From Thermodesulfobacteriota bacterium (lineage in GTDB: Bacteria > Desulfobacterota > Binatia > Binatales > Binataceae), in contig JBKPEA010000005.1 of NCBI GenBank assembly GCA_046728175.1, positions 12,795-76,794 of the forward strand: a stretch of 64,000 bases of DNA. The letters are read 5' to 3'. Position 1 is the first letter of the stretch, and every line of letters begins with the position of its first letter. Under the pieces are notes generated by a model. The model ran no database searches and was not told the DNA's origin. It saw only the letters and a list, made by a program, of their open reading frames with translations. Below are positions 29,391 to 49,052 of this stretch, one piece after another. The translations under genes were made by a program, and so were the position numbers.

Positions 29391-30420
29391 TTACAACGTT
29401 GCCAGCGCTTCGGACGCCAACGCGCGCCTCATCTCACCCGCGCGGCGCGCGAGACGGGCGGCCTGGCCTGACCACATATTCATAAACGCGTTCGAGCCGG
29501 AAGGTTCGGATTTAGCCCTCAGCGGGACAACCGCGCTGCTCGCGAGTGGAAAATTCGGCAAAGCTGACGCAATCGGACCAACTTCCAGCATCAGCCGATT
29601 AACAATGCCCCGCGCCGGGCGGCCAGTGAACACGTTGGTGATCATCGTGTCGTCATCGGTAGCATGACTCAGTGCTTCGAGATGCAGTGGAGGCACCTCG
29701 GCCTCCGGACAGAATAAATATGCAGTACCGATCTGGACAGCAGATGCACCCAGTATGAGCGCCGCGACGATCCCCGCGAGCACCCGCTATTCCCCCGGCC
29801 GCGATGACCGGAACCCCGACTGCGTCTACGACTTGCGGCACTAGCGCGAAGGTTCCAACTTGCCGAGCCATGTCGTCGGTAAGAAAGTTCCCGCGATGGC
29901 CCCCCGCCTCGAACCCCATTGCGATGATCGCATCGCAGCCGTGAGATTCAAGCCACCGCGCTTCACGCACCGTCGTCGCCGAAGCTACCACGCGTGCCCT
30001 GGTCGCCTTGACGCGGTCAAGGAGATGCTTGGCGGGCAAGCCAAAATTGAAGCTGACAATTTGGGGTTTGAACTCCTCTATGAGGGCGCACGATTCGGCA
30101 TCGAAAGGTCTACGGGACGGAGCGGCTACCGGAGCTTCGGGATCCAGTCCAAGCTCGAGATAATAGGGCTTAAGCAACGCCCGCCATGCTAACTCGCGCT
30201 CTTGGTCTCGGATCGGAGGGGTGTGACAGAAGAAGTTGAGATTCAATCGGCCGCGACGTCGCCCGACGTATTGTCTCTGACGCGGTCCTGATCTCACCGC
30301 CACCGAGTTGTGCGCAGGGCAAAGAACCCAACCCGCCGGCCTCGCTAACTGCAATCGCGAGCGCAGCGGTTCCCGGACCGGCCATCGGCGCCTGGACGAT
30401 GGGAAACTAAATACCCGAAC
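29391..30420 (-). pseudogene. Nitronate monooxygenase (NMO/2-nitropropane dioxygenase family), frameshifted
   Basis: MAGPGTAALAIAVSEAGGLGSL N-terminus, GFEAGGHRG and VPVIAAGGIA core, ILGASAVQIGTAYL C-terminus lie in three different frames. Confidence 0.65.
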
Positions 30421-30470
30421 AGGTCGAGGATACGTTGATCGGGCCATGCTTTCATCGTGGTTTGGCTACC

Positions 30471-32561
30471 TTACATAAACTCACAGATATCCGCAGCGGT
30501 CTCGTCCGCGGCGTGTACCTCGCGCGAAATGTCCGGCTTCGAGAATCTGGACGACGGCGTTTGGAAGATCGCGTCCTCCGGCTCCGAGATTTCAAACGAC
30601 TGATCGTCTTTCTCCCCTAACGATAGACTTTCCTGTTGAGTTCCGCGAAGCGAGGCTCCCATGTGCTTGACCGCATCCTGGCAGGCGGCCAGGAACAGAC
30701 GCAGAAAGCGACACAGGATCTTGTGTTGCGGCAAAGCCATACCTGAAAGCACTCGATTGCAAATCCGGCGAGCGAGGCCACAGCGGCTGGATAGCCTGGC
30801 CGAGGGATTATTCGGTTCGCTGCATGTGGAAGTGATCAAGCTCTGTAAACCAGGTTGATGATTTAAGTTTGCGATCCGCTGGTTGGTGCATTCGATCTCC
30901 GGGCCTTCGGCCCCGCAGGAATACCGAAATTCCAGTTTGGCCTCAGAACCGTCGCGGTAGCCCTGTATCGTATGAAGCAAGAGTATTACTCGATGTTCTT
31001 TTTCATCGACGTGGTCAAACTTCCAATGGTCGAATTCGGAAATATTACCTGACCGCCGCTCTTCTTCCGTTACGTTTACGTATCCTTCGCTATCAGGCAC
31101 CAACTGAATGGTGCCGTCATTCTGGGCTTTCCAACAAAGTGTCAATGTGCTTGCCCAGAGAAGTCCCCAGCGGCACGGCGAGTATTCCAGTCGCCGTCCT
31201 GGACTAAACGATTTCCCCGTATTGCTGGAATGCCAGCATTCCACGAACCGCGCGAGTATAGCCTGCTGACTGATTTGTGCGGATGGAGATGGCGATGGAA
31301 GCGGGCTCGCCGAGTTTTCCAACGACTGCGTCGGCGGCAGAGAGGGTAGAGCAGCGGATACCAGCTTGTCAGTCGAGGCCGTTTTTGCAATCTCGGCCTG
31401 CGACGGTTGCGGCGTCGAATTGACCTTGCCAATCGCAATCCGTCGCCGCCACGCGGTCGAAGAAAACAGCAGCGTTGCACGAAGTGCGAGGACGAAAAAT
31501 GCAGCAAACGAGAGTGGTAACCACCCGAATCGGCTTTCCGTTCCTCCTCCTAGCAGCGTGCGGCAGTAGGGACAGGCTGTAGCGTCGGCCGGGATCGAAG
31601 GGAGGCAATTTCGACACAAGATCTCATGCACCGAGACCCTGCTGGAGGTATCCTGCACTGACACTGGGCGGCTCGCTCCCGCCGGCCCCCGCTGCAATAC
31701 CATCGTGGGAACATCTGACTGCGGTCCGGCAACAGTCGTGGCGTTTGGCAGACCCTGAGGTCCTCCCTCGATTAACCGCATCCGTCGCCTGAATTCGTGG
31801 GCACTGTGTATGCGCTGATTGACATCATTAGGCAAGCGATTCATCGACGAGTTCCGCGAGAGCGGGACTGATCTTGGGTGCTAGTTCACTCGTCGGCGGA
31901 AAGCTGAACGGTGGCGCGGCCGTTGGGTCGCGCCCGGTCAACAGATGATGCAACGTCGCACCGAGCGCGTAGAGGTGCGAGCGGGCCTCAACCTTTCCGA
32001 AATACTGTTCGGGCGGCGCGTAACCCTGGGTGCCGATCATCGTCGCGGTATTTTAGGCTGGAAGTGACACGAGATGCCGAAGTCCACCATCTTGACCCGA
32101 CCATTGGCTTTAACAATCACATTTGATGGCTTCAAATCGCGGTAGATGATCGGCGGCGTCAGACCGTGCAGGTACTCGAGTGCTTCGAGAACCTGTGTCG
32201 CGACGGCGATCACGAACGTTTCATCCAGCCTGCCGCCAGCCGCAGTCAGCTGCTCGTCGAGCGTCCGTCCTGGCACATATTGCATGACCAGGTAATGCCG
32301 GTTGTTCTCGCTGAAGCGGTCAAAGATTCGCGGGATAAATTCGCTTTCGAGTTCGGCCAAGAGGTCGGCTTCGCGTTCAAAGGCAGCAATCGCCGCCGCC
32401 TGGTCGGAGGGGCGGGTGAAGCTATCAATCATTTCTGCCAGTGCAGCCTGGCGCTTTAGATGCACGTCCTCGACCAGATAGGCGGGCTTCATTCCACCGC
32501 CGCCCAACTCGCGGACAACCCGATAGCGTTCGCCGATCACCGCGCCAGGGTTCAGCATCAA
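30471..32561 (-). pseudogene. Hanks-type Ser/Thr protein kinase with zinc ribbon, TM helix and Cys-rich extracytoplasmic domain; two frameshifts
   Basis: YRDLKPSNV and DFGIS motifs, then frame change in A4 run before IGTQGYAPPEQ, second change before NDVNQRIHSAHEFRRRM; downstream CRNC..CPYC ribbon and TM segment. Confidence 0.6.
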
Positions 32562-33143: not shown

Positions 33144-34622
33144 TTAACGATCGTCGCTATCTTCGCCCTGCGAGGCGGGAACCGGGGGATTCACTGACAC
33201 CAGCGACCCCGACATTACCCAGGCCTTTTGACTAGGTGCAAACCGGGGGGCAAGCAATCCATCGTTTATTTCCCGCGTGATCGCAAAGCGATTGTACTGC
33301 GTAGAGGGAATGAACAGTCGTGAGTTGTCCGAGAATCCGTCCGAAGCGGTGTCGACATCGCCTTCCGCCGCCGAGACGACACCGTCGTGATTCGCATCAA
33401 CCCGTGCAACTTCTGCCGCGTATGCATCAAACAGGCGCGTGTCGAAGTCTGTCACACCGGGTTCGAACGACGCGCGACGCTCGTAGACGTCCAGGAAGAT
33501 CTCGTTGGCCAGACCGCTCGGAATGAACCGCTGGCGGAATTCGCGCTGCGAATCATCGTCGGCGTCGAACTTGTCGGGGTCGCGTGGTCCGGAGGCCTGC
33601 AACACGCCCTTGTTATTGGGATTGTCGCCGTAGGTAACCGGATCGTTCTTTATCCCGTTCGGTCCCGACCCAGGGACTATCGATTGTAGAGCCCCGACCT
33701 GACCTTTCTCGAATGTTCCCGGAATGCCGCCGGTAAATGGAAGCTCGTACAGTGGATGAATCCAGTTTGTGGTGTAGTTGAACTCCCAATAAGCGTGACC
33801 GTCGCTCTGCTGAAGGGTGTTCCAGGCGCCCATGCTCAATTGAATTGGGACCACGTTGGTCTGAGAGTCCGGAAAGTGATCGCTGGGCGATGGGAAGTGA
33901 GGTTTCTCGCCATCGGTAGTGAAGAAATTCTCCGGGGTTGCGTTGTTGTCGCTGAGAGCGGCCGCATCCGCAGGCAGAAGCGCGCCGAATTGAGCGTGAC
34001 CGTCGCGGCGGGGAGCGGGGTTGACCGGAGCTATTCTTAAGTCGTGAATCATCCAGCCTTCGTACCAGCCGCTCTCATTGTTAATCACGAACAAGTTCGA
34101 AATGTCGGTGAAGACATCGATGAATGCGCGCACGTTGTTCGGGTCTGTCGGCAACCCGGGCTTGGGCTCGAGGACGAGCCGCACCGATCCGATGGTGGGT
34201 AAGCCGCAGTCTGCACCGGTGGCCGTGAGCATCGCGGTATCGTTCACGCCGGGAATCAGGCTGGTGAATGGGTTTGGTTCAAAACCCGAAGTGTCCAGCA
34301 AGTAATACTGGAAAAGTTGGCTAGGCTTTGCCTTGAACGGAGGTGTGTCAGTGTGAGCTTCTGCGTATGCCTGAGTAGGCAGCTGACTGTGCGGTCGACT
34401 CGCCATCCGAGCTAGCTGTTCTTTAAGCGGTGCGGGCAGATCTACGATGTCCCCGCGATTTACGACCCTAGCGACATCGGCATTCGCCCGCGGGTTGGGA
34501 TGGCATGGCCGCGGAGGCTGCTCCCCGTAGGCCGAGCTCCAGGCCAGCGCTGTGATCACCGAAGCGCAGAGTGCGACCTTTCGGAACCAACCTTCCTCTG
34601 TGGACCAAAACGAGACACGCAT
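33144..34622 (-). CDS. Secreted hypothetical protein with a C-terminal EF-hand-like Ca-binding loop
   Basis: Signal peptide; DANHDGVVSAAE matches the DxDxDGxIxxxE EF-hand loop consensus; no family recognised. Confidence 0.45.
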   Translation of the reverse strand: MRVSFWSTEEGWFRKVALCASVITALAWSSAYGEQPPRPCHPNPRANADVARVVNRGDIVDLPAPLKEQLARMASRPHSQLPTQAYAEAHTDTPPFKAKPSQLFQYYLLDTSGFEPNPFTSLIPGVNDTAMLTATGADCGLPTIGSVRLVLEPKPGLPTDPNNVRAFIDVFTDISNLFVINNESGWYEGWMIHDLRIAPVNPAPRRDGHAQFGALLPADAAALSDNNATPENFFTTDGEKPHFPSPSDHFPDSQTNVVPIQLSMGAWNTLQQSDGHAYWEFNYTTNWIHPLYELPFTGGIPGTFEKGQVGALQSIVPGSGPNGIKNDPVTYGDNPNNKGVLQASGPRDPDKFDADDDSQREFRQRFIPSGLANEIFLDVYERRASFEPGVTDFDTRLFDAYAAEVARVDANHDGVVSAAEGDVDTASDGFSDNSRLFIPSTQYNRFAITREINDGLLAPRFAPSQKAWVMSGSLVSVNPPVPASQGEDSDDR

Positions 34623-35837
34623 GGTCTTGTTACCTCCTTGCACGATTGATTTGGTTGATGTGTGAAGGGAAATTTTCCCTTTTCGAGAAAAGACTGGCTT
34701 CCATTGTGAAGAGAGTCAAGAGACAAAGATCTCGCAGGGACCGGAGATCGCAAATTTTCAGGAACTGAGGGACAAGCAAGGCGCAGCTTCACAATCCAGG
34801 CTCACTCCCTTAAAACACTGTGTTAATCATTTGGTAGTTAGGAGTACCGGCGCGTTAATTAGGAAGCACTCGTTACAAAGGGCTGAAGCGACCTGGAAAA
34901 ACGACGAGGTGAGCTGGCTGCTCCTCCATCCGATGCAGCCACGTCGGAGGAGTCGCATATTGAGGGAACTCGTTTCGTTGGAAAGTAGTGAGAATCCTGG
35001 TGACCCAGATGATTGCGCAACCTCGGACTCCCGCCGACCGTCACTGCAACAGGCTTCTGGTCATGGATGATATCGAGGCCGCGCCCATAGGTAGCTGGTT
35101 CGATGGCGGAGCTGTTAGGCAGCTTCAGGCGACGACCGGCATTCCTTCATGCTGATGGGGCTCTACCCGATAATTCGTTTTTCAGGATTCTTATTGATCG
35201 TTTTCAAGATGAGGGGGTGGGTTAGCCTTTTTCTGCATGCACTGGATTGCTGGGGTAGTCGTCTTGATTTCGGACCCCGCTGCGATCTCCGGGGGGAAGC
35301 ATGATGCGCGAATCACTGAGTTGGTCATCTGCGGTTCAAAGAAAATATATTGACACCCGCAAGCTTCGGTCTCGGAAATCTTCCTGGCGCCTTCTGCTTG
35401 TTCAGCGGTAGACAGTTTCGACGAGACCGGCGCACCGGACCCCAGAGTTCCATGACGGCCCAGACGCAAGGGGAAGTCTCTTATATTGGCGCTGCTCGTC
35501 TCTAGCTCAGTTGATGTTTTCCAAATGGTACAGCGATATGATGTGCAACTTTCGTAGTATGACTCTGCCATGCCCACGCCAACCGACAAACAGCCAGGTT
35601 GTAAGGTGCAGGCAACGGCTTCATCGGGTTTTGCAGGAACCGCCGTCCGAAAAGGCATTCAGCCTCGTTGAGTCTTCGAGGATTTGCGGCTCAACGTGTG
35701 CAGGGAGGAACCATGCCGCTCGGTGGCCTAGGGAACTTAAGATTCGGTGTAGAGGCCTGTGGAAGGACAGTCGTTCTTGCAAATCGTGATCAAGCTCGCA
35801 CGAATCCTGACGGATCGAGTATGCGGTGGGCCCGCTT

Positions 35838-37649
35838 TTAAATCGGGGTTCCGAGTCTCTGCTTGCTCTCCGCCCGAACATCGGCGGCTTCCCTATCTCG
35901 TTGGCTGGCAGAAGGCCCAATTGCCAGCCGCCGTATGGCGCGACGCGCTTCGCGTCCATTCCTGAACACCTGCCAGCAACCCGCAGATAGAAACTCGGAC
36001 GAGCACGCGATCGCGGCGGGCCCGCCCGCAATGATCTTAAGGTGTGGTAAGTCTTTCTTGAGATCGCGGATCAGTGCCGTCACAGACGCTACACACTCTG
36101 CAACGGTGCACGTAAGACAGACAAGGTCAGGTGCGTATCTTCCCACAAATTCGCGCATTTCCTGCGCTGATTGCTTTTCGCTTACGAAGATTGCTACCCC
36201 ACCGTCCTGTCGTAACAACTCCAGCACCATCAGCAGCCCGAGATTGTGGACCTCAGCGGGAGCGCAAAGGCCCACAATTCGCCGGCGCGAAGAGGGCCGC
36301 GGCCGGTCGAAACGGTCTCCAAGATCCACAATCAGCCGACGAGTGATTTCGACTATAGTTTCCAGATTTCGCTCATTGATGTTCCCATGATCGAAATCAT
36401 CGCCCATCATCACGATCGCGGGAGTCATCAAATCGGAGAAGGTGGCGTCCAAACCATGTTCGTCGCAATATCGAATCGCGAGCGAATGTGCGCCGGAATG
36501 ATCTAATTCCAGCAACCGACGATAGTAGTCGTAACTCTCATTCGACGGTGTTTCGGCTCCCAGCAGGATTCCGAGAAAACCGAGCGGCGGCACATAGTCG
36601 CCCGCTACCTTAAGACACGCCGTGAGCGGGATAGCAATAAGAAGTCCTGGCACACCCCAGAGCCACGCCCAGTACGTCGTCGAGATCAGAAGTGCGGCAG
36701 GCGCAACACCAATTCCGCGCCCGATCACAAATGGTTCGATCAAATGGGCTGCGATCTGATCGAGCACCACGAAGGAAATGATCACCTCGATCGATCTGCT
36801 CCATCCGGGAAACACTGCAACAGCCACCATCGTCGGAAACAGCGCGGAGCCCAGCGCGCCTATATACGGAATGAACCGTAGCAGGAAGGCCAACATCCCC
36901 CACAATTCGGGATTGGGCAGCCCCAGCATCCACATGATCGCCGCTACGGCTAGTCCGTAACCCAAGTTGATCAAAGAAAAGAACAGCAGGTACCGCCCAA
37001 CCGCCTCTCCCGCGGATTCGAGAGCTTGCCTCGCTATCGTGATACCGCCACGCGCGGCCAATCGCACCATCCGGTCGCGCAAGTCCTTTCTTGCGTAAAG
37101 GAGAAAAAACAATAGCACGATGATCAGGGTGCCCTCCGCCGCGTCGCTCGCGATCGGCAGCGCCTGTTTTACAAGCTCGCCACTATTCGGCAATCCCGCG
37201 GTCGTTTGGCGGGCGGAGAACGAACGAGGAGCTTCCCATCGCAGCTGGTGCTGTACATTGGCGATCCCATCCTTCACTCTCTGCACCCAGTCCGGTGTAT
37301 TTTTCTCCACCGAAGCAATTTTGATCGCAATGTTGTCCGAGTAGTCAGCGACGCGCACGGCGACGGAAGTCAATTCGACGGTAAGGAAGTATACGATCAC
37401 GGCCAACGCCATGATCGTCATCAACACTATCGCCGCAGCGCTCAACGCTCGGCCTACGGGTTTTTCCAAACGCGTCGCGATAGGGCTGAAGATAACTGCG
37501 AGTACCATCGCGATCGCCAGCGGCAGCAGTAGATCTTTAGCCGCATATAGCACCGCGGTGGCGATGATCACGCCCAGAAGGACTCGAATTGCAGTAGACC
37601 GATCGTCGTCACTGCATTCTGAGTCATCGCTAAGTAATTGTCCGTTCAC
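35838..37649 (-). CDS. AI-2E family transporter (PerM/YdiK-like) fused to C-terminal cobalamin (B12)-binding domain
   Basis: Single 603-aa ORF; 8 TM AI-2E core (~aa 20-380) then a helical region and a Rossmann-like B12-binding fold IVGLCAPAEVHNLGLLMV...KIIAGGPA (ExHxxG variant of DxHxxG). Confidence 0.7.
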   Translation of the reverse strand: MNGQLLSDDSECSDDDRSTAIRVLLGVIIATAVLYAAKDLLLPLAIAMVLAVIFSPIATRLEKPVGRALSAAAIVLMTIMALAVIVYFLTVELTSVAVRVADYSDNIAIKIASVEKNTPDWVQRVKDGIANVQHQLRWEAPRSFSARQTTAGLPNSGELVKQALPIASDAAEGTLIIVLLFFLLYARKDLRDRMVRLAARGGITIARQALESAGEAVGRYLLFFSLINLGYGLAVAAIMWMLGLPNPELWGMLAFLLRFIPYIGALGSALFPTMVAVAVFPGWSRSIEVIISFVVLDQIAAHLIEPFVIGRGIGVAPAALLISTTYWAWLWGVPGLLIAIPLTACLKVAGDYVPPLGFLGILLGAETPSNESYDYYRRLLELDHSGAHSLAIRYCDEHGLDATFSDLMTPAIVMMGDDFDHGNINERNLETIVEITRRLIVDLGDRFDRPRPSSRRRIVGLCAPAEVHNLGLLMVLELLRQDGGVAIFVSEKQSAQEMREFVGRYAPDLVCLTCTVAECVASVTALIRDLKKDLPHLKIIAGGPAAIACSSEFLSAGCWQVFRNGREARRAIRRLAIGPSASQRDREAADVRAESKQRLGTPI

Positions 37650-37810: not shown

Positions 37811-38017
37811 TTAGGATCGCCTTTTTTTGCGCGACGGCACCTTTGCACCGCTCCGACGCGCTTCTGACAAGCCGATCGCAATCGCCTGCTTTCTGCTTTT
37901 GACTTTCTTTCCCGAGCGCCCCGACCTCAGCGTTCCGTGTTTTCGTTCGTGCATCGCACGTTTGACTTTCTTCGATGCCTTGGGTCCATATTTCCGCCTC
38001 GAAGCTTTCCTGGCCAT
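37811..38017 (-). CDS. Small basic protein (hypothetical, stress-associated type)
   Basis: MARKASRRKYGPKASKKV...KHGTLRSGRSGKKVKSRKQAIAIGLSEARRSGAKVP; GGAGAA RBS. Confidence 0.45.
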   Translation of the reverse strand: MARKASRRKYGPKASKKVKRAMHERKHGTLRSGRSGKKVKSRKQAIAIGLSEARRSGAKVPSRKKRRS

Positions 38018-38078
38018 AGCCGATTCTCCTTTCTCGACCAACACCCAGCGCGTGTTAGACGGCTATTTTTCCACAATC

Positions 38079-38560
38079 GCAATCGCCCCATTTCGAGACG
38101 ACTGAATTGCTCCTGGGTCCATTGAAGATGCTCTTCTTCTTCCGGCTCCACTTCCGAGACGGCTGCGTTCAACACATCGAGAATCTTTGCATCATCGGTT
38201 TGACGGGCGATCTTACCGAGCAACTCCCAATCCGCGTGATCCTTAGTCTCGGCGAGTATGATGTTCTCGATTGCATTGATTTCGGCCGCCCCGCCTGTCA
38301 GCCCATTGGTCATCGTCTTGAGCAGAGCTTCAGCCTTCCTTACTTGGTCGCGATCTTTGCTCCCGAACTAATGTATTAGGATCCAGGCCGAGCTGCCGGA
38401 TGACTCGGGTCAGGATCGTTTCATGCTTTCGCGTCTCCCGAAACAGAGCGGAACCTCTTCTAGAGCAGCAATCACTATGCCATCTTGAGTCTATCACTAC
38501 TCTTTGGAAACGAACCGAACTTATTTGTGGAACCCATCTGCAGGCTTTCAAATGGAGCAT
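38079..38560 (-). pseudogene. DUF892/YciF-like ferritin-like protein, fragmented
   Basis: ETILTRVIRQLGLDPNTL in one frame and KDRDQVRKAEALLKTMTNGLTGGAAEINAIENIILAETKDHADWELL...EEEEHLQW in another. Confidence 0.35.
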
Positions 38561-38795: not shown

Positions 38796-39650
38796 CTACG
38801 ATGGGCGCGCTCGGCCCCGGGAACACCTCGAACGCGTCTGCCCGCCCCTCTCGCGCGAGGGCCCCCGACCGCGGTGGCCAGCTGCTTCCTCCCTATTCGA
38901 AGGCTTCGTGCCCCGCGAGGCCAGCGAATCCTTCAGCGCCTTCATCAGGTCGATCGTCTTAGCAGGTCTTCGCGCAGGCGCGATGGTCAATTCCTCGCCG
39001 GCTACTTTCTCCTTTGCCAGCTTCAGATCCTGCGATAGGTGTCCTCGAATTGCTCGGCCCCGAACTCCTCTTTTGAGAGACCCTCGATCAAACGTTCCGC
39101 AAGCTTTAGCTCCGAACTCTTCAGCGACCTCCTCGCACTCTGCACGATCTCCCTGCACGGCCGGATTTCGTCAGCGTAGTGCATCGTATGTGACATCAAG
39201 ACGTTTTCATAAGGACGAATTAGCGCGAGGTGCTCCTTGCCGCGCATTACCAATTTTGCTAGCGCCGCTCGCCGGCTCTTTGCATGGCAACCTTTAGCAG
39301 GTGGCAGGCTTTGGCACTGGAAGCACTGCATCCCAGGAGATAGGCAGAAACAAAGTACACCGGATCAACCGCCGCCATCGGAATGAACTGCAATATGTCG
39401 ATCTCGCTCCAGACTCGACCTTTTCAGCTCCTTTGTCGTAAAACTGACATACTCCCCCTTTCGAATCTGAAAGCCATGCACCAGTTCGCTGCGCTCGAGG
39501 GCTCCTTCTCCTTGATGCAATAGAGTTATTCGCATATCCGGCTCTTATCTTTCGCTTGGAGCAGGTCGGCGTACAGAGTTCGAGCGAGTCGCCGCAAATA
39601 GTTCGACCGGAATCGAGACGAGCCCAAGGAAGGCTACTTCGTGAGATCGC
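38796..39650 (-). pseudogene. ku: Ku (NHEJ DNA end-binding protein), multiply frameshifted
   Basis: MARKAIS then EVAFLGLVSIPVELFAATRS N-terminus, middle ERLIEGLSKEEFGAEQFEDTYRRI, C-terminal KTIDLMKALKDSLASRG; spread over three frames. Confidence 0.6.
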
Positions 39651-40077
39651 TTTACGCGCCATCCTGGGTCTCCTCTCTTACTGCCAAAAAACTCGCCAAC
39701 TTGGACCGTCTGATTTTTTAATACGTCTCGCCGATTCACCACTTGAGCAAGCTTTTGAAAAAGGTCATCGCATTAAGTCATGTTCGAGCCCGCGATAGCT
39801 TCCTTAGTCCGATATCAACGTCAACTTTTTTTGCACATGACAATTCGCGTTCCAGCGACCAACGCTGCGCTTAGAAACCAAATGACCAGGAACTCTTGCC
39901 ATCAGATTCGATGCGGCACAGTCGGAGTGGGCAGCTATCGGCAAAGGGAGGCTTTCAAACTTGCGCGGTATCTCGAAAGAGCCACGCTAGCCGGTTCGGC
40001 TAAATCCGAAACCGCTCCGCATACGTTTTCTTGAATTCCAACCCGTGGCCGGGCCGAGAGCGGTCGGGTGCGGCCCT

Positions 40078-41045
40078 TCAGTCTCGCGGCCGTACCGCGC
40101 CCTCGAACAACATTCGCTCGATTCGATCGTGATCGTGAAAGAACTCCAGGTGGACCGCGGGCCGGACCGCGCAACACGCATGAACCTGAAGCGCCGGACA
40201 ACAATACGCCGACAGCGGAATCGATCGAGACTCACAAAGCGCCGCGACCCGGAGAAACCCCCTCAACCCCGCGCATCGCGATGCGTCGGCCTGCAAGACG
40301 TCGACCGCGCCGTGCGTGATCATCCGATTGAAATACGGAAGGTCATAATCGTATTCACCCGCCGCGATGTCCATCCCGGCCGGCGCGCGATCCCGCAGCA
40401 TCCGCAACCCATCCAGGTCGTCCGATGACACCGGTTCCTCGAACCAGCTAACACCGAACTCCTGCAACTGCTCGGCCAAGACCAGCGCTTGTTTGCGCTA
40501 GTAAGCCCCATTCGCATCCACGAAGAGAGCGGTCCGCGGTCCGATTGCCTGGCGCGCGGCCCTGACTCTGGCAGCATCCTGATCGGGTTCGCGCCCAATC
40601 TTCATTTTCACTTTCGTATACCCCCCGCCGCCCACTTCCCGAGTTGCTCTTGCAGCCGTGCACGGTCGTACGAAGTGAAACCGCCGCTGCCGTATACTTC
40701 GATGCGATCGCGAGCCGCGCCGAGCAGATCCACCAGGGGAATGATGCTTTCAGGTCCCCCAGCGCCGCATCGACCGCCGCGATCCCATCGAGCAAATTCC
40801 GGGACGTCCGAGATTCCGAACCGCGTGAACCATTGCCGACCAATTGCCGTCAATCTGCATTGCGTCGCGCTCGCGAATCAGGGGGGGCGAGCAGATCATG
40901 GATCACCACTGAAGTGGCGCGGTCCGCGCACGTATAGCCGACACCCCAATGACCCGCGGCTAAGACTTCAACCGTCACTATGGTCGTGGAATCCCACTCA
41001 AGCGTGCCGTCTGACTCTGGATAGTCGGTGGGAATGCGGCAAACG
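40078..41045 (-). pseudogene. Enolase-superfamily enzyme (mandelate racemase/muconate lactonizing family), frameshifted
   Basis: N-terminal RIPTDYPESDGTLEWDSTTIVTVEV, middle IIPLVDLLGAARDRIEVYG, C-terminal GVSWFEEPVSSDDLDGL..IAAGE in different frames. Confidence 0.6.
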
Positions 41046-41098
41046 GTGACCCGTGGTTTCTTCGACTTTGGCGACAGAGCTGCTCATCGCGCGCCGTT

Positions 41099-42840
41099 TC
41101 AGATCAGCTCGCGAATTCGGTCACCGAACACCGTGTACGCGATTTTTTCACGATTCGGCTCGCCCTTGATCAGCGATTCAGCGAAGTGCTTCGCCTGCTC
41201 GAAAGTCACCTTCGCCGGCATTGGCGGCTCAAGAGCATCCACTTCCGCCTCGATCAGGGCGGGACCCGGCTGGGCCAGCGCCTCCTCGAGGATTTGGCCG
41301 CATTGGGTCTGCTCCTTGATTGTGAAGCCCTGCGCCCCGCATGCGCGTGCGTACGCGGCGAAGTCGATCGGTTGAAGATCGACTCCATACTCGGGCACGC
41401 CCAAGAAGACCATCTGCTCCCATTTAATCTGTCCCAAGGTATTGTTCTTGACCACCACGATCTTGACCGGCAGTTGGTACTTCACGCAGGTCACCAGCTC
41501 GGCCATCAACATGGAGAATCCGCCGTCGCCGACAAACGCCACACATTGGCGATCCGGATACGCCACTTGCGCGCCGATCGCATATGGCAGCCCGCACGCC
41601 ATCGTCGCCAGGGTCCCTGACACCGAATGCATTTGGCCACGCTTGACGCGAATATGGCGCGCCCACCACGTGGTGATCGTTCCGGAATCGCAAGTCACGA
41701 TTGCGTCGGAACGCAGCCGCTGCCAAGCTCGTGCGCAACGACTTGCGGTTTCATCGGATGGTCCGCTCGTGTAGCGCGCCGCAACATCAACTCCTCCCAC
41801 TCGCGTGCCCCCTCCTGCGCTTTCTCGAGAAACGAGCGGTCCTCCTTGCGTTTGAGTAACGGGAGTAGAGCATCGAGCGCTTTCCGGCAGTCTCCGACCA
41901 ATCCCGACTCGACCGGATACCGGAGCCCAATACGGACCGCATTCAGATCGATCTGCACGGCGCGCGCCTGATCAGGCTTGGGCAGGAATTCGATGTACGG
42001 AAACGAGCTGCCCACGATTAACAAGGTGTCACAGCTTTCCATTGCATCCTGTGAAGGAGTCGTGCCGAGTAGACCGATTCCGCCTGTCGTGTACGGACTG
42101 TCATCCGGAACGCACGCTTTCCCGAGCAGTGCCTTGACGATCGGCGCGGCCAGCATCTCCGCGGTCTTTTCGAGCTCGTTGCCAGCGCCCAGGGCCCCCG
42201 CGCCGGCAAGAATCGTCACGCGCCTGCCTGCGTTCAGAATTTCGGCAGCCCGCCGCAGGTCATCCGGATTTGGAATCGAACCGGACCCTACAAAGCGCAG
42301 CGAGGTATGATGTGCCAGATTCCGCGCAGATCTCTGCTGCTTCGACATCATCTGCACGTCGGTCGGAATAGTCACGTGCGAAACACTGCGATAGGCAAGC
42401 GCTGTCCGGCACGCCAGATCCGTGACGGTCTCAACATGCTCGACTCCCATGACACGTGCGTTGTACGCGGCGACGTCCATGAAAAGCTTGTCGAGTTCGA
42501 CGTCCTGCTGCGAATGAGTACATAGCAGGTCGTGGTGGTGAAGCCCGGTTATTGCCAATACCGGAGCACCATCGAACTTTGCGTCGTAAAGTCCGTTCAG
42601 AAGATGGATACCGCCCGGGCCGGAAGTAGCGAGGCATACGCCAAGACGCCCCGTGAACTTCGCATACGCGCACGCCATGAGGGCCGCCGCCTCCTCGTGC
42701 CTGACCTGGACAAATCGGACAGTCTCCTGCTTTCTGCGCAGCGCTTCCATGACGCCATTGATGCCGTCGCCCGGCAACCCGAACACGGTATCGACGCCCC
42801 AAGCGACCAGTCTTTCGATGAGGATATCTGCTGCTGTCAT
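41099..42840 (-). pseudogene. Thiamine-diphosphate-dependent pyruvate oxidase/PoxB-like enzyme with one frameshift near 41740
   Basis: 394-aa N-terminal part (GVCLATSGPGGIHLLNGLYDA) and 233-aa C-terminal part (VAFVGDGGFSMLMAEL TPP motif) are in different frames but contiguous. Confidence 0.7.
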
Positions 42841-43119
42841 TTGCTTTCTTGTGAGATACCCAGGTCGAAAGCAAGACACAGGCCCGGTAAAACTGCTTCT
42901 AGACGCCGGTCAATTCGGCGATCACGGGCATTCGGAAGAAATTGCACACTCGCGTATCAAACCGAAATTCTTGTCACTTTTACTCAAACAATCGAATCTC
43001 GACCAAAGCTCACGGTACGCTTGCTTAAGTTTATTTGCTGCGTCGATTCACCGGTTCAGACATAATAAATGCCCCTACTCTTGCTGCTTACCGATCCGCA
43101 TCTGCATTTCCAAAAATCG

Positions 43120-44872: not shown

Positions 44873-45938
44873 TCAGCGTCGAAAGGGCGGAATTTCGGTG
44901 CTGCGAATTCCAGTTCTCATCTGCTGCGGCATTGCTGCTCTGGTGGGCTGATGCGCGACGCGGCGATCGCCTCGAGTGACCTTCTCCTCGCGGCTGAAAT
45001 GCGGGACGATTTTCTCCGAGTAGAAGCGGAAGAAGTCGCGTTGATTGGGCCCCACCTGGTGGACGTATACGTGATCGAAACCCGCATCCATGAATGTCTG
45101 GACTCCAGCGATGTGCGTTTCAGGATCGGGACCGAGAGGCATGCCTTCTGTGATCTTGTCCGGGTCCATGATGGCGATCGCTTCCTCGAAGTGGGACGGC
45201 AGCGGCAGATCGGTCATTAAGTGTCCGCCAATTCCCGGGTTGGACCAGTATTTGCGCACCGCTCCTGCCGCTTCTTCTTCGCTGCGTGCCTAACATACGG
45301 TCAACTGACCGTACCGCGGTTTGCCCAGGCCGCCTGCGCGCTCGAAGCCGCACACGAGCTCTGAATTGGGTTCAAGACTGGTCAGGCCGTCGCCCACCCG
45401 CCCGGCCAGTTCGGCGGCGCCTGGCCTGCTCGCTGCGACCATGATCGAGGGCGGCTCACGGGAAGAGTGAAGATCCGGGGGCGATCGATCGTGAAGTATT
45501 TCCCCTCGTGCGTCTGCCATCCGCCGCGCCACAGCAAGCGAATTGCCGAGATCGCTTCTTCAAGCATCTCGAGCCATTGATGAGGCGTCGGCCAGCGCTT
45601 CCCGGTGATGTGCTCGTTGAGCTGTTCTCCGGTTCCCACTCCGAGAAAGAAGCGGCCAGGCAGCAGCGCGGCTGAGGTAGCCGCACCTTGGGCTACCAGT
45701 GCAGGACTTATCCGCATAGTCGGGCATGTGACCCCAAGCCTGAGCCGTTGCGTCGGCTGTGAAATGCCGCCTATCACGCTCCATACGAAAGGACTGTCCG
45801 GTTGCGGGTTTGTCCAGGATGAAAGTGATCCGAAATCAGCGAGAAATTGAAGCCCGCATCCTCGGCTTCTTGCGCGTAGGTGACGAGATCGGCAGGAGCA
45901 GTCTCCTCGCTGGAAAGAGAATATCCAAGTTCGGTCAT
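44873..45938 (-). pseudogene. LLM-class F420/flavin-dependent oxidoreductase (luciferase-like), fragmented in three or more frames
   Basis: MTELGYSLSSEE..FNFSLISDHFHP, RLRLGVTCPTMRISPALVAQ, FFLGVGTGEQLNEH, DHVYVHQVGPNQRDFFRFYSEKIVPHF segments in different frames. Confidence 0.6.
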
Positions 45939-46501
45939 GATGGGTGCTCCACGACGGCGACGACGATTCCCCTTTTCCCTGAAGCAAAGAACAGGCCCTA
46001 CGAAAGTTGGCGCCGCTCCGTCGGCGCTCGATGGTGATTCAGGAAGCCGGAATAAACTGCCGACTGACGCGTCAAAATTAGATTCTTCCCCGCATGAGCT
46101 CCAGTCCGCTATCCAAAGCTTGCTGACAAAGACAGATGCTTGAAGGCAGATCGCCCACCGATGCAATGCCGCGGTGCACTCTCTGCTTCTTTATTTCAAC
46201 ACGGCATCAGCCATGAGCAGTATTCCGCCAACTGATGAGGTGACCGGAATAACTTCGCTGATTCTCGCTTGCGATGGCGCTGCCGATTCTTGGAATCGTG
46301 GTGTATGGTTTTCGCAGTGGGATGGACTTCCCTCGGTTTCGGTTCATTCGGGGTAATGATCGCCGTCGCAATCGTTTATTATCTGATTCTCAGCGTCAGG
46401 TTGCGCCATCGCCAGCGCTAGTCGCGCAAATCCGCAAAAATAGGCAAACCATAGTATTGAATCGCGCTTGTTTCATCGCAAGTTTAACCTAGCTCTGGGA
46501 C

Positions 46502-47416
46502 CTAACGCATCGCTTCCAGATACTTTTGAGCTTTGCTTAGTGAAGTGGCACTTCGATCGATCCTAGACCATGCATCACCTTTTTTTGCGATACGACGCAG
46601 CACCGTTTTGATGCTGTACTTCTGCGCATTAAGGCCCTTTGCCAAGGCCTCCGGCCAGGTCAGTGGCGTCGCCACCGGAGCGCCTTCCCTTGCACGCACC
46701 GAGTATGGCGCTACCGCGGTTTGTGCGCGCGAGTTTCGCAGGTAGTCGAGGAAGATCCTCCTGCCGCGCCGCTCCTTACGTTGTTCCACTGTCAGCTCCC
46801 GCGGATGCCGCTTCGCCATCAGGGTGGCAAGCTCCCGCGCAAAATCATGGACCCTGTCGAAGTCCGCGGATCGGTCCAGGGGCACCACGATATGCATTCC
46901 GCGCGATCCGGTAATTTGCGCAAAAGAGGTCAACTCCAAATCGTCCAGCATCTGCTTGAACGTGCGCGCCGCCGACTGCACCGCGGCGAAATCAGCCGTG
47001 GATGGATCCAGGTCGATTATCATCCGGTCGGGATGGTCGATCCTATCGCGCCGGGAGAGACCCGAGTGAATCGTGATGCAATTTTGCTCGGCCAGGTAAA
47101 TCAGCGTGGCGGCATCGTCGGCCACGACCTCGGTAACCTTGCCGCCGATCTTCCGAAGCGCGACCCGGTCGATCCAGCGCGGAAAATATTCGGGAACTTC
47201 CCGATTGAAAAAGCCCTGCCGCCCGATTCCGTCAGGATAGCGCTCCATGATCAGGGGCCGGCCCGTGACATGCGGCACCATCACTTTCGCGACCTCTGCA
47301 TAGTATTCGACCAGCTCAGCCTTGGTGATTCCGCTCTTTGCGAACAGGACTTTGTCGGGATGGGTCAGCTTGACCACATGGCCGCCGGCGCGAATGTCGA
47401 TGGTCTTTGTCCTCAT
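46502..47416 (-). CDS. ligD: LigD polymerase/primase (PrimPol-like) domain protein
   Basis: VVKLTHPDKVLF, ITGSRGMHIVVPL, RGRRIFLDYLRNSRAQTAVAPYSVRAREGAPVATPLTW motifs. Confidence 0.8.
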   Translation of the reverse strand: MRTKTIDIRAGGHVVKLTHPDKVLFAKSGITKAELVEYYAEVAKVMVPHVTGRPLIMERYPDGIGRQGFFNREVPEYFPRWIDRVALRKIGGKVTEVVADDAATLIYLAEQNCITIHSGLSRRDRIDHPDRMIIDLDPSTADFAAVQSAARTFKQMLDDLELTSFAQITGSRGMHIVVPLDRSADFDRVHDFARELATLMAKRHPRELTVEQRKERRGRRIFLDYLRNSRAQTAVAPYSVRAREGAPVATPLTWPEALAKGLNAQKYSIKTVLRRIAKKGDAWSRIDRSATSLSKAQKYLEAMR

Positions 47417-48414
47417 ACGGACGCCCGCTCGCGAACGATTTCGCGTGGGCGCTTGTCGTAGCGCAGCCCGCGGAAACTAGGATGCCGGAGTTTTCCGTCC
47501 CGCGTCCATTCCGAGAATGCAAATTCCCCCATCAGCCGCGGCGCGATCCAGGTCGCGTGCCGCTCCCCGACTTCATCGAGGAATGGACGTTCCCTTCGTC
47601 GCATACGATTCATTCGTTCGCGCAGCTTCAACCGCGTCGATACGCTGAATCCCGTTCCGACTTTTCCGGCGTACCGAAGTCTGCCGTCCTGGTAGTAACC
47701 GACCAGTAACGCTCCGAAGCCTTTCGCGCTGCCGCGCGGCTCCGTGAAGCCGCCGATGACGAGTTCCTGCCCCTGCGAGCATTTGAACTTGAGCCAGTTC
47801 GGAGAGCGGCCCGAGACATACGGAGAATCGGCACGTTTGGCGAGCAAGCCCTCCCACCCTCTGGCGCAGGCTTCCGCGAAATATCTCTCCCCATGTTTCT
47901 GCCGATGCGCAGTGAATCGAATGGGGGCATCGAAGCTGAGCGCCCCCCGCAATAGCTCTTTACGCTCCAGCAACGGCAACGCGCTCGTGTCGTAGCGATC
48001 AAGATAGAGCAAGTCGAAGAGATAGAAGAACACGCGGACTTTGCTCTGGCTCGCCTCCTGGGATCGAATCTGCATCCGCTCCTGCAACTTCATAAAGCTG
48101 GTTTGCGACCCGGAAAATGCCACCACTTCGCCATCAACGGCGAAGCTCTGCGGGAGCTGCTTCCGGAGCGCTTCGGCCAGTTCCGGGTAGGTCTGATTGA
48201 GATCCTTCCGATTGCGGCTCATCAACTGGACTCGCCTGCCGGAAACGAACGCGAGCACCCGCTGCCCATCAAATTTCCGCTCGAAAATCCAATCCGGATT
48301 GGAAAAGCGGGTCTGCGTAAGCGTCGCCAGCATCGGTGAGATCCAGCGCGGAGCCGAAGCGGCCTTGAGCAGCGCGCGACTTGCGGGTGGTAATTGACGC
48401 ACCGGATCGGTCAT
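47413..48414 (-). CDS. ligD: ATP-dependent DNA ligase (LigD ligase domain)
   Basis: ERKFDGQR KxDG adenylation motif, EGLLAKR, WLKFK; 4-nt overlaps with both flanking genes. Confidence 0.85.
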   Translation of the reverse strand: MTDPVRQLPPASRALLKAASAPRWISPMLATLTQTRFSNPDWIFERKFDGQRVLAFVSGRRVQLMSRNRKDLNQTYPELAEALRKQLPQSFAVDGEVVAFSGSQTSFMKLQERMQIRSQEASQSKVRVFFYLFDLLYLDRYDTSALPLLERKELLRGALSFDAPIRFTAHRQKHGERYFAEACARGWEGLLAKRADSPYVSGRSPNWLKFKCSQGQELVIGGFTEPRGSAKGFGALLVGYYQDGRLRYAGKVGTGFSVSTRLKLRERMNRMRRRERPFLDEVGERHATWIAPRLMGEFAFSEWTRDGKLRHPSFRGLRYDKRPREIVRERASV

Positions 48415-49052
48415 GCGTGCGGGCCGCCGTGCTGAGCCATTTGCTCGACTGTCTTTCCGCTGACTACCGATGTCCGCTCCTTTCGGACGGGTTCCTTACG
48501 CGTACTCGCGTTTTCATCGCGGCCCTTGATAAGAAACCAGCGCCGCTCGCGGCCCCGTCCTACTCGTTGCAAGACAAATCGGCCCTTGAGCTTCTTGCCC
48601 AAAAGTTCAAAGACCAGGTGTCCGTCCCGAATAGCGCGACCGGCGTCCTTGATCGTTTCCGCAGGTCCGCGAGTCACATTTTTCCAGGTGCCACGATCCC
48701 ATACGATTACGGCGCCGGCGCCGTATTGCTTGGCAGGGATGACGCCCTCGAATTGAGCGTAGTCTATCGGATGATCTTCGGTCGGAACCGCCAGGCGCTT
48801 CACCTTGGGATCGATGGAAGGTCCTTTGGGAACCGCCCACGATTTCAGGACATCGTCCACCTCCAGCCGGAAATCATAGTGCATCGCCCGCGCATCATGT
48901 TGCTGGATAACGAACACCGGTTTCCCGCCGGGGTTATGCGCGCGCCCACGCGGCTCCGGAGTCTTGGCGAAGTCGCGCTTACGCTTATAAGTCTTGATGC
49001 TCATTGCATGGTATTGTTTTCTTGATTTATCTTCGTCGCGAATCAGCGGCAT
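48411..49052 (-). CDS. ligD: LigD 3'-phosphoesterase domain protein
   Basis: FVIQQHDARAMHYDFRLE, LKSWAVPKGPS, EDHPIDYAQFEGVIP motifs. Confidence 0.8.
   Translation of the reverse strand: MPLIRDEDKSRKQYHAMSIKTYKRKRDFAKTPEPRGRAHNPGGKPVFVIQQHDARAMHYDFRLEVDDVLKSWAVPKGPSIDPKVKRLAVPTEDHPIDYAQFEGVIPAKQYGAGAVIVWDRGTWKNVTRGPAETIKDAGRAIRDGHLVFELLGKKLKGRFVLQRVGRGRERRWFLIKGRDENASTRKEPVRKERTSVVSGKTVEQMAQHGGPHA

Follow-up and report, generated by a model that had tools for sequence, protein, structure and literature searches.

A published relative of the protein discussed here is HaAI-2E (WP_052573826), reported in the SignatureFinder study (FEBS J 2024, PMC11796333) and composed of an AI-2E transporter domain, a cobalamin-binding domain (CBD) and a diguanylate cyclase. 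In this protein an arginine occupies the position of His177 of TtCarH, no light response was predicted, the CBD bound hydroxocobalamin (OHCbl) only, and it served as the negative, light-insensitive control, no function being proposed for it (PMC11796333). The same work defines the light signature of CBDs that act as adenosylcobalamin (AdoCbl) photoreceptors as GxxW, EH, GxxH and GxxxP (W131, E141, H142, H177; PMC11796333). For the membrane part the reference is TqsA, which was found by cryo-electron microscopy to be a pentamer with both N- and C-termini in the cytoplasm; its C-terminal half, built as TMH5-HP1-TMH6-HP2 (TMH, transmembrane helix; HP, helical hairpin), was proposed to be the mobile part of an elevator mechanism, and residues L337 and S339 of its C-terminal tail touch the adjacent protomer on the cytoplasmic face (PMC9475539). 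Our literature searches for other papers tying AI-2E transporters to cobalamin gave only HaAI-2E and an unrelated transcriptome mention. Here we describe a gene on the minus strand of contig JBKPEA010000005.1 of a Binataceae bacterium (assembly GCA_046728175.1) that encodes a fusion of an AI-2E-family transporter with a CBD. It occupies positions 35838-37649, stop codon included, of the stretch of 64,000 nucleotides that was analysed (the window), and the features of the gene given below are all on that strand.

The open reading frame (ORF) is a single unbroken frame of 603 amino acids (aa), as had been stated in the first-pass annotation of the window, and it is supported as a gene by the mechanical ORF list, by Pfam and by full-length homologs. 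That annotation had also proposed an AI-2E-family membrane domain fused to a B12-binding domain of the CarH/MerR type, and Pfam, profile searches and Foldseek all agree with this. The B12-binding domain PF02310 was recognised by Pfam at residues 457-572 with an E-value of 2.5e-13 and 50.3 bits (cut-off 32.1), and the isolated C-terminus reached 52.7 bits against the same model and cut-off. The helical cap model PF02607, which had been suggested as a second check, gave a weak match (E 0.19). In its C-terminal part the family profile matched the photocobilins 8j2w/x (E ~2e-10), the CBD of CtMerR (8jbs) and a GGDEF photocobilin (8j2y), followed by TtCarH/LitR (E ~3e-4) and AerR (7te2, E 8.8e-4); the AerR match was weak, and methyltransferase corrinoid proteins were marginal. 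Two AlphaFold models were obtained. The first (AF2), from 37 sequences, was good in the CBD only, the transmembrane (TM) half having a predicted local distance difference test score (pLDDT) of 40-70; the second, from 148 sequences including a distant branch, had a mean pLDDT of 87.1 and a predicted template modelling score (pTM) of 0.72. Foldseek aligned the second model with the TtCarH CBD (5c8a/8c31/9s0h) with a template modelling score (TMt) of 0.85-0.86 and a root mean square deviation of 2.5 A over ~205 columns, a match that takes in both the four-helix bundle and the Rossmann subdomain and that was given equally by the first model.

The four-helix bundle of the CBD spans aa 373-446 (36312-36533), with modelled helices at 371-380, 384-398, 400-420 and 426-445, and aligns to the bundle of TtCarH, photocobilin and CtMerR. 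The Rossmann-like cobalamin-binding subdomain, aa 457-575 (35925-36281), corresponds to the PF02310 match, has a beta-alpha pattern with pLDDT 90-98 and is matched by Foldseek to the TtCarH CBD. Within it lies the segment IVGLCAPAEVHNLGLL, found where the first-pass annotation had put it, and the ExHxxG-type motif that it had noted is present as E466-V-H468-N-L-G471 (36237-36254). By alignment it corresponds to E175-x-H177-x-x-G180 of TtCarH and is predicted to supply the lower-axial ligand of the cobalt. The further elements of the classical B12 motif are T513-C-T515 (36105-36113), of which T513 aligns to the serine of the TtCarH LSA and stands for S-x-L/T, and G542-G543 (36021-36026) for the GG. 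Judged from the residues, the classical base-off/His-on motif D/E-x-H-x-x-G...S-x-L/T...G-G is intact and correctly spaced. In the family alignment (n=199) H468 is kept in 191 sequences, Glu or Asp at 466 in 196, G471 in 181, Ser or Thr at 513 in 195, G542 in 188 and G543 in 187. Moreover, the turn between helices 2 and 3 of the bundle carries a family motif, Y394-C-D-E-H-G-L400 (36450-36470), with Y in 189, C in 181, D in 186, G in 197 and L in 179 of the same 199 sequences.

The gene product is an inner-membrane AI-2E-family protein of the TqsA/PerM-like type (TC 2.A.86, Transporter Classification). Its membrane domain, aa 23-349 (36603-37583), matches AI-2E_transport (PF01594) with an E-value of 4.3e-45 and 154.8 bits (cut-off 34.3), and the match covers profile positions 4-322 of 327. 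The family profile found E. coli TqsA (7nb6) with an E-value of 2.3e-29 over profile positions 32-373, and Foldseek aligned the second model with 7nb6_A over 355 columns (E 1.6e-10, TMt 0.75), the model having pLDDT 85-96 in this part. The modelled fold is that of TqsA, an H1-H4 scaffold followed by TMH5-HP1-TMH6-HP2. The AI-2E/PerM assignment of the first-pass annotation therefore stands, but its simple bundle of eight TM helices does not, as the solved TqsA has four helices, two TM helices and two helical hairpins (PMC9475539). Orthology to TqsA itself and membership of the AI-2 exporter subfamily were rejected, since NCBIfam PRK12287 gave 106 bits against a cut-off of 318.

The junction between the two domains, which had been put at about position 36,500, lies near there; more exactly it comprises aa ~350-372 (36534-36602), as defined by the homolog alignment, the TqsA alignment and pLDDT. 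It consists of the conserved AI-2E C-terminal tail helix GDYVPPLGFLGILLG followed by a linker of about eight residues, AETPSNES, and the first helix of the CBD begins at residue 371 in the model. This is the sole stretch of low pLDDT between the two domains in the second model. The junction region ranks among the best-conserved parts of the protein in the homolog alignment, with G350, D351, L362 and L363 invariant in the family. The segment aligns to TqsA residues ~324-340, so that L337/S339 correspond to L362/G364. Because these tail residues align just before the linker and the start of the CBD, we infer that the latter is cytoplasmic and hangs from the transport domain at a subunit interface, by homology with TqsA.

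The fusion defines a conserved family that is found almost exclusively in Candidatus Binataceae. When 5.8 billion proteins were searched by word index, 661 matches were obtained; the best 120 of them (clusters) carry both Pfam domains and span 50-100% identity, nearly all being 570-660 aa long with 50-77% identity over 88-100% of the query. In addition, 111 loci with full-length matches were found in a scan of one genome per species. The named members are nearly all Candidatus Binataceae/Binatus or metagenome-assembled genomes labelled 'uncultured delta proteobacterium', from soil and peat, with two taxonomic outliers, Terriglobales and Acidiferrales. Several genomes have two paralogs, for example L015 and L041 on one contig and L026 and L077 on another. 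A member that is 77% identical (P0002) is intact in two unrelated samples, and the identical protein, flanked by the same genes, is present on a JGI contig separate from this one. The first-pass annotation had considered such a fusion unusual, which it is not: it is common in Binataceae, where a genome often has two paralogs, a degenerate sister branch of very large size exists elsewhere, and HaAI-2E has been published.

Both halves of the protein are under purifying selection, which on the B12 domain is strong. Averaged over all pairs of members, identity is 0.63 in the TM domain, 0.60 in the bundle and 0.56 in the Rossmann part. Against the closest relative with available DNA (L087) the ratio of nonsynonymous to synonymous substitution rates (dN/dS, Nei-Gojobori) was 0.09 for the TM domain, 0.02 for the bundle, 0.15 for the Rossmann subdomain, 0.29 for the C-terminal tail and 0.10 for the whole CBD, values that are rough because dS is saturated.

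A wider superfamily surrounds this clade. An exhaustive phmmer search of 1.84 billion cluster representatives, with residues 300-603 as the query, found 5,487 matches at E<=1e-3, of which 1,958 reached E<=1e-10; many of the matches are proteins of about 600 aa with 26-36% identity aligned across the end of the TM domain and the CBD. At the His position 69 of 84 full-length distant representatives have Asp and five have His. A search seeded with one of them (P0154) gave at least 5,540 clusters, of which the named ones are Gemmataceae and about half have no Pfam B12 match. When both branches were aligned jointly, H468, G471, S/T513 and G542-G543 were present in all 77 sequences of the His branch, whereas the 71 sequences of the Asp branch have D/E/N, A, A/G and G-R at those four sites. 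The Y-C-D-E-H/N-G-L motif of the bundle is likewise specific to the His-type clade, the Asp branch having Leu for Cys. Residues Y375, Y376, L379, L380, D383, A387, P410, T436, G557 and R569 are common to both, the first six of them being junction residues that are invariant or nearly so in each branch, which speaks for coupling of the two domains. As the motif is kept in 77 of 77 sequences on one side and replaced at every site on the other, it appears to have been kept for a reason and not by inertia, and the Binataceae clade is predicted to be the part of the superfamily that still holds the cobalamin site.

The relatives also tell something about the use of the module. Longer ones append SpoIIE/PP2C, GAF, GAF plus SpoIIE or a second CBD (P0160, P0184, P0192, P0241, P0148, P0172); the second CBD of P0148 has a complete W-EH-H light signature, and that of P0172 keeps the W, the E and the ligand His with Gln for H142. 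The fused module is therefore an ancient one that has been put to wide use in regulation, and its domain arrangements suggest that, in other phyla, signalling proteins have AI-2E membrane domains as their inputs or anchors. The SpoIIE/PP2C and GAF outputs found downstream of the same module mark it as a sensory or regulatory unit.

Taken together, cobalamin-gated transport or signalling seems to be the most plausible reading of the protein. Of this earlier proposal, the B12 domain on a transporter is supported by Pfam, fold and motif, and the gating is what we infer from it. The contrast with the Asp branch points to a domain that binds cobalamin through His468. The protein would then be a His-on cobalamin sensor allosterically controlling an elevator-type transporter, a reading to which we give about an even chance. 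When cobalamin binds, or when its redox state or ligation changes, the CBD would adopt another conformation or make other contacts with the neighbouring subunits, and this in turn would switch the transporter on or off. Since the gene has no operon partner, the protein may be a post-translational sensor of B12 status built into the transporter and acting alone.

Several points weigh against this reading. Cobalamin binding by members of the clade is predicted from the motif, and the proposed allostery is an extrapolation from what the structure of TqsA and the behaviour of CarH show. Most of the superfamily has lost the motif yet keeps the domain, which implies a cobalamin-independent role (scaffolding, oligomerisation or gating) that could be the main one in the window protein too. 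At several pocket positions the window copy also has a residue other than that of the family consensus, namely A465 in place of G, F419 in place of R, N423 in place of H and S490 in place of G. HaAI-2E, the sole tested AI-2E-CBD protein, bound OHCbl only, and with Arg in place of His it has little weight either way. Finally, the surroundings give no hint of cobalamin: no cobalamin riboswitch was found in the window or at four homolog loci, none of the ~40 Pfam-annotated ORFs of the window is cobalamin-related, and clustering of the flanking ORFs at 85 loci gave no family present in more than ~25% of them.

The alternative that survives best follows from the sister branch, namely that the domain only gates the AI-2E pentamer from the cytoplasm or serves as its scaffold there, with no functional cobalamin binding, as it presumably does in the Asp-type relatives. 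The sister branch indeed retained the domain and the junction residues while replacing His, Gly, Ser and GG, and about half of it escapes the Pfam B12 model. Moreover, loss has occurred inside Binataceae: a small paralog subclade of five loci (L064, L065, L066, L074, L076) has H to N and G to S, with the motif GVMAPGDAN-LLSLLM, which is a within-lineage replay of the loss in the Planctomycete-type branch; the remaining three non-His rows of the 199 are truncated or misaligned. Against this, for three of the five loci the His-type paralog of the same genome is in the set (L064/L075, L076/L054, L065/L052), and the invariance of the four motif elements across the window clade, with dN/dS of ~0.1, is hard to explain if no ligand is bound. 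We consider a cofactor-less domain unlikely in the window protein.

The first-pass annotation had also raised the possibility of light-gated transport, in which a CarH-like photoreceptor would bind AdoCbl or another alkylcobalamin, whose Co-C bond would be broken by light and the transporter thereby switched. By sequence and fold, the closest solved relatives are all photoreceptor CBDs (photocobilin 8j2w/x, CtMerR 8jbs and TtCarH), and any bound alkylcobalamin is intrinsically photolabile. The residue alignment to TtCarH 5c8a nevertheless speaks against it. The equivalents of the CarH AdoCbl pocket are G416-D-D-F419-D420...L429-E430 (36360-36404), where G128 corresponds to G416, W131 to F419, H132 to D420, E141 to L429 and H142 to E430. 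In the Rossmann part G174 corresponds to A465, E175 to E466, H177 to H468 and G180 to G471, GPDTP is replaced by SEKQS (490-494) and the S of S-x-L by T513. The window protein thus keeps the His alone of the four-element light signature (G-D-D-F, L-E, A-E-V-H, S-E-K-Q-S). The family consensus keeps GxxH and has R, Q, Q and GxxxS/T at the W131, E141, H142 and GxxxP sites. Position 419, the site of the CarH Trp, is R in 164 and F in 25 of the 199 members and never W, and the Glu-His pair, which could be counted in favour of light gating, is retained in only 30.

With these replacements the adenosyl pocket of CarH is not intact in the window protein. As the Trp and the Glu-His residues of the pocket are replaced, the bound cobalamin is more likely to carry a small upper ligand (aquo/hydroxo-, methyl- or similar) than to be AdoCbl, and as the AdoCbl light signature is absent, CarH-style photoreception seems unlikely. 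HaAI-2E, which is also devoid of the signature, bound neither AdoCbl nor methylcobalamin. Membership of CarH/LitR was rejected as well, there being no MerR match and an NCBIfam CarH score of 29.7 bits against a cut-off of 400. Light gating in this protein therefore strikes us as quite improbable, and the cobalamin sensor is preferred. Within that reading our confidence is highest for the cytoplasmic tethering of the domain and decreases for cobalamin binding by His468, then for the small upper ligand and the exclusion of CarH-like photoreception, and finally for gating.

It could also be thought that the AI-2E domain itself moves cobalamin or a precursor, the tethered domain capturing or delivering the cargo on the cytoplasmic side. 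A predicted high-affinity binding domain situated right where the membrane domain opens to the cytoplasm would suit such a role, and AI-2E substrates are diverse and poorly defined, as the names used in NCBIfam tell (AI-2, chloramphenicol efflux, sporulation protein). The genomic context, however, offers nothing that a corrinoid transporter would lead one to expect. At the gathering threshold the window as a whole gave no Rfam match, and the search for a cobalamin riboswitch upstream of the gene and at the four homolog loci was negative at permissive thresholds too: at E<=1 nothing was found directly upstream in the window and at L001 other than a chance-level match to the L20 leader (E 0.21). 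Gene-free stretches of 1.2-1.35 kb precede two homologs (L001, 6645-8001; L003, 6759-8001), and in these Rfam gave nothing besides the same L20 leader (E 0.21). There are no btu, cob or cbi neighbours, the same module preceding phosphatase or GAF outputs in relatives fits sensing and not the handing over of cargo, and the ligand motif is lacking in most of the superfamily. Transport of corrinoids is for these reasons a doubtful explanation, with a small chance of being right.

The gene is monocistronic. A DUF6496 gene (37811-38044, minus strand; 77 aa, very basic, Pfam E 1.8e-22) lies 160 bp upstream and is overlapped in another frame by an ORF of 128 aa (37927-38313) with no Pfam match. It is not conserved as a neighbour at the other loci, and the four homolog contexts on long contigs are unrelated to one another. 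Downstream there is an ORF of 499 aa (33144-34643, minus strand) with no Pfam match, a hydrophobic N-terminal segment and an acidic DGVVSAAEGDVD-like C-terminal region.

Several genes of the window are fragmentary or split. They run from 38796 to 42879 on the minus strand and occur also at 45382-45987, 32037-32561 and 29653-30447. A thiamine pyrophosphate (TPP) enzyme is divided into overlapping ORFs in different frames (41695-42879, N and M domains; 41099-41800, C domain), a Ku fragment (39023-39331) covers Pfam positions 129-176 of 190 only, and there is an MR_MLE_C fragment at 40078-40479; luciferase-like, protein-kinase and NMO fragments are also present. The JGI contig that carries the identical AI-2E-CBD protein shows the TPP enzyme split in the same way, as well as the MR_MLE and the weak Ku matches, so the fragments look like real pseudogenes or a reproducible assembly feature and not random errors, and the ORF of interest is unaffected by them. 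The first-pass annotation had itself asked whether the fusion could be an assembly chimera, and although such neighbours (TPP enzyme, Ku, MR_MLE, luciferase-like) could raise the suspicion that separate transporter and B12-binding genes were joined by a frameshift or misassembly in the contig, this was rejected and its probability is negligible, because the same uninterrupted fusion with its conserved junction recurs in more than 100 independent assemblies and at the 111 genome loci, the identical protein lies on a separate JGI contig, and both halves are under purifying selection in one frame. Farther along the minus strand, LigD of non-homologous end joining is represented by three adjacent ORFs with overlapping stop and start codons (46502-49052), encoding Prim-Pol (46502-47416), ATP-dependent ligase (47413-48414) and 3'-phosphoesterase (48411-49052), with the degraded Ku about 8 kb away. 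At the homolog locus L006 a DNA-ligase fragment adjoins the AI-2E-CBD gene, a loose association with repair or stress genes.

The two ends of the protein deserve mention. The N-terminal acidic tail, predicted to be cytoplasmic (aa 1-22, 37584-37649; low pLDDT), starts with a GTG, no other start codon lying between it and the in-frame TAA upstream, and contains the stretch LSDDSECSDDD. In JGI the identical protein is called from V27 as a product of 577 aa; since the acidic stretch, which lies upstream of V27, is conserved in homologs, the 603-aa start is favoured. At the other end, a variable basic tail (aa 576-603 with the stop codon, 35838-35924) extends 28 residues past the CBD; it is poorly conserved, with a dN/dS of 0.29, and has low pLDDT.

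The known regulation by cobalamin acts through RNA (riboswitches) or through transcription factors and anti-repressors (CarH, AerR), and to our knowledge B12 has not been shown to control a membrane transporter directly, at the post-translational level. The window clade is the His-retaining form of an architecture already in the databases and noted once in the literature. As it keeps every cobalamin-ligating element, and HaAI-2E and thousands of relatives lost them, it is the best natural candidate so far for a B12-controlled transporter. One can go further and propose, tentatively and with more doubt than conviction, that these Binataceae proteins provide the first example of transport gated by vitamin B12 acting directly on the protein, and that the AI-2E module together with this CBD is an ancient sensory cassette. 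Five His-on CBDs would then form a ring under the AI-2E pentamer that locks or releases the elevator transport domains, its input being the cobalamin status of the cell, the redox or ligation state, or light-generated hydroxocobalamin as in AerR; the cassette of AI-2E module and CBD would have been rewired in other phyla to PP2C, GAF and GGDEF outputs after loss of the cofactor. The His and Asp branches constitute a natural experiment on the role of the domain with and without cofactor. Moreover, the AI-2E family is large and has few members with known substrate or regulation, for which a defined regulatory input would be a handle on function. CBDs serve as optogenetic and chemogenetic modules, and one that natively controls a membrane protein could interest engineering. 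The practical limit is that the organisms are uncultured.

In comparison with the known systems, the membrane domain of the window protein has the fold of TqsA/YdiK of E. coli (7nb6; PMC9475539), from which the cytoplasmic termini, the pentamer and the elevator-type C-terminal transport domain are predicted by homology. Identity to TqsA is only ~23%, and TqsA has no cytoplasmic sensor domain, ending where the linker of the window protein starts. With TtCarH (5c8a/5c8d) it shares the module of four-helix bundle and Rossmann subdomain and the lower-axial His in E-x-H-x-x-G. It differs from CarH/LitR in having no MerR DNA-binding domain, in the replacement of W131, H132, E141, H142 and GxxxP, in a sequence identity of ~19-20% and in an output that is a membrane transporter and not DNA binding. 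In AerR a second His, which comes from the N-terminal region, is the upper ligand of OHCbl, and no equivalent residue was identified here. AerR/PpaA (7te2) are nevertheless examples of CarH-like CBDs that work as non-AdoCbl cobalamin sensors and regulate a partner by protein-protein contact, although AerR, unlike the window protein, is a soluble, stand-alone anti-repressor.

The closest likenesses are found among the fusions themselves. The Asp-type AI-2E/B12-like proteins of Planctomycetota (e.g. Gemmataceae) and other phyla have the same architecture, a length of ~600-640 aa and the junction residues of the window protein, with 26-32% identity across both domains. They differ in His to Asp, Gly to Ala, Ser to Ala/Gly and GG to GR, the cobalamin motif being lost, and some of them add SpoIIE/PP2C, GAF or a second, canonical CBD. 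HaAI-2E, annotated in databases solely as an AI-2E transporter, resembles the window protein in its N-terminal TqsA-like AI-2E domain followed by a CarH-like CBD and in the absence of the AdoCbl light signature; the window protein differs from it in having no match to GGDEF/diguanylate cyclase, no output domain, and His468 and the full cobalamin motif retained.

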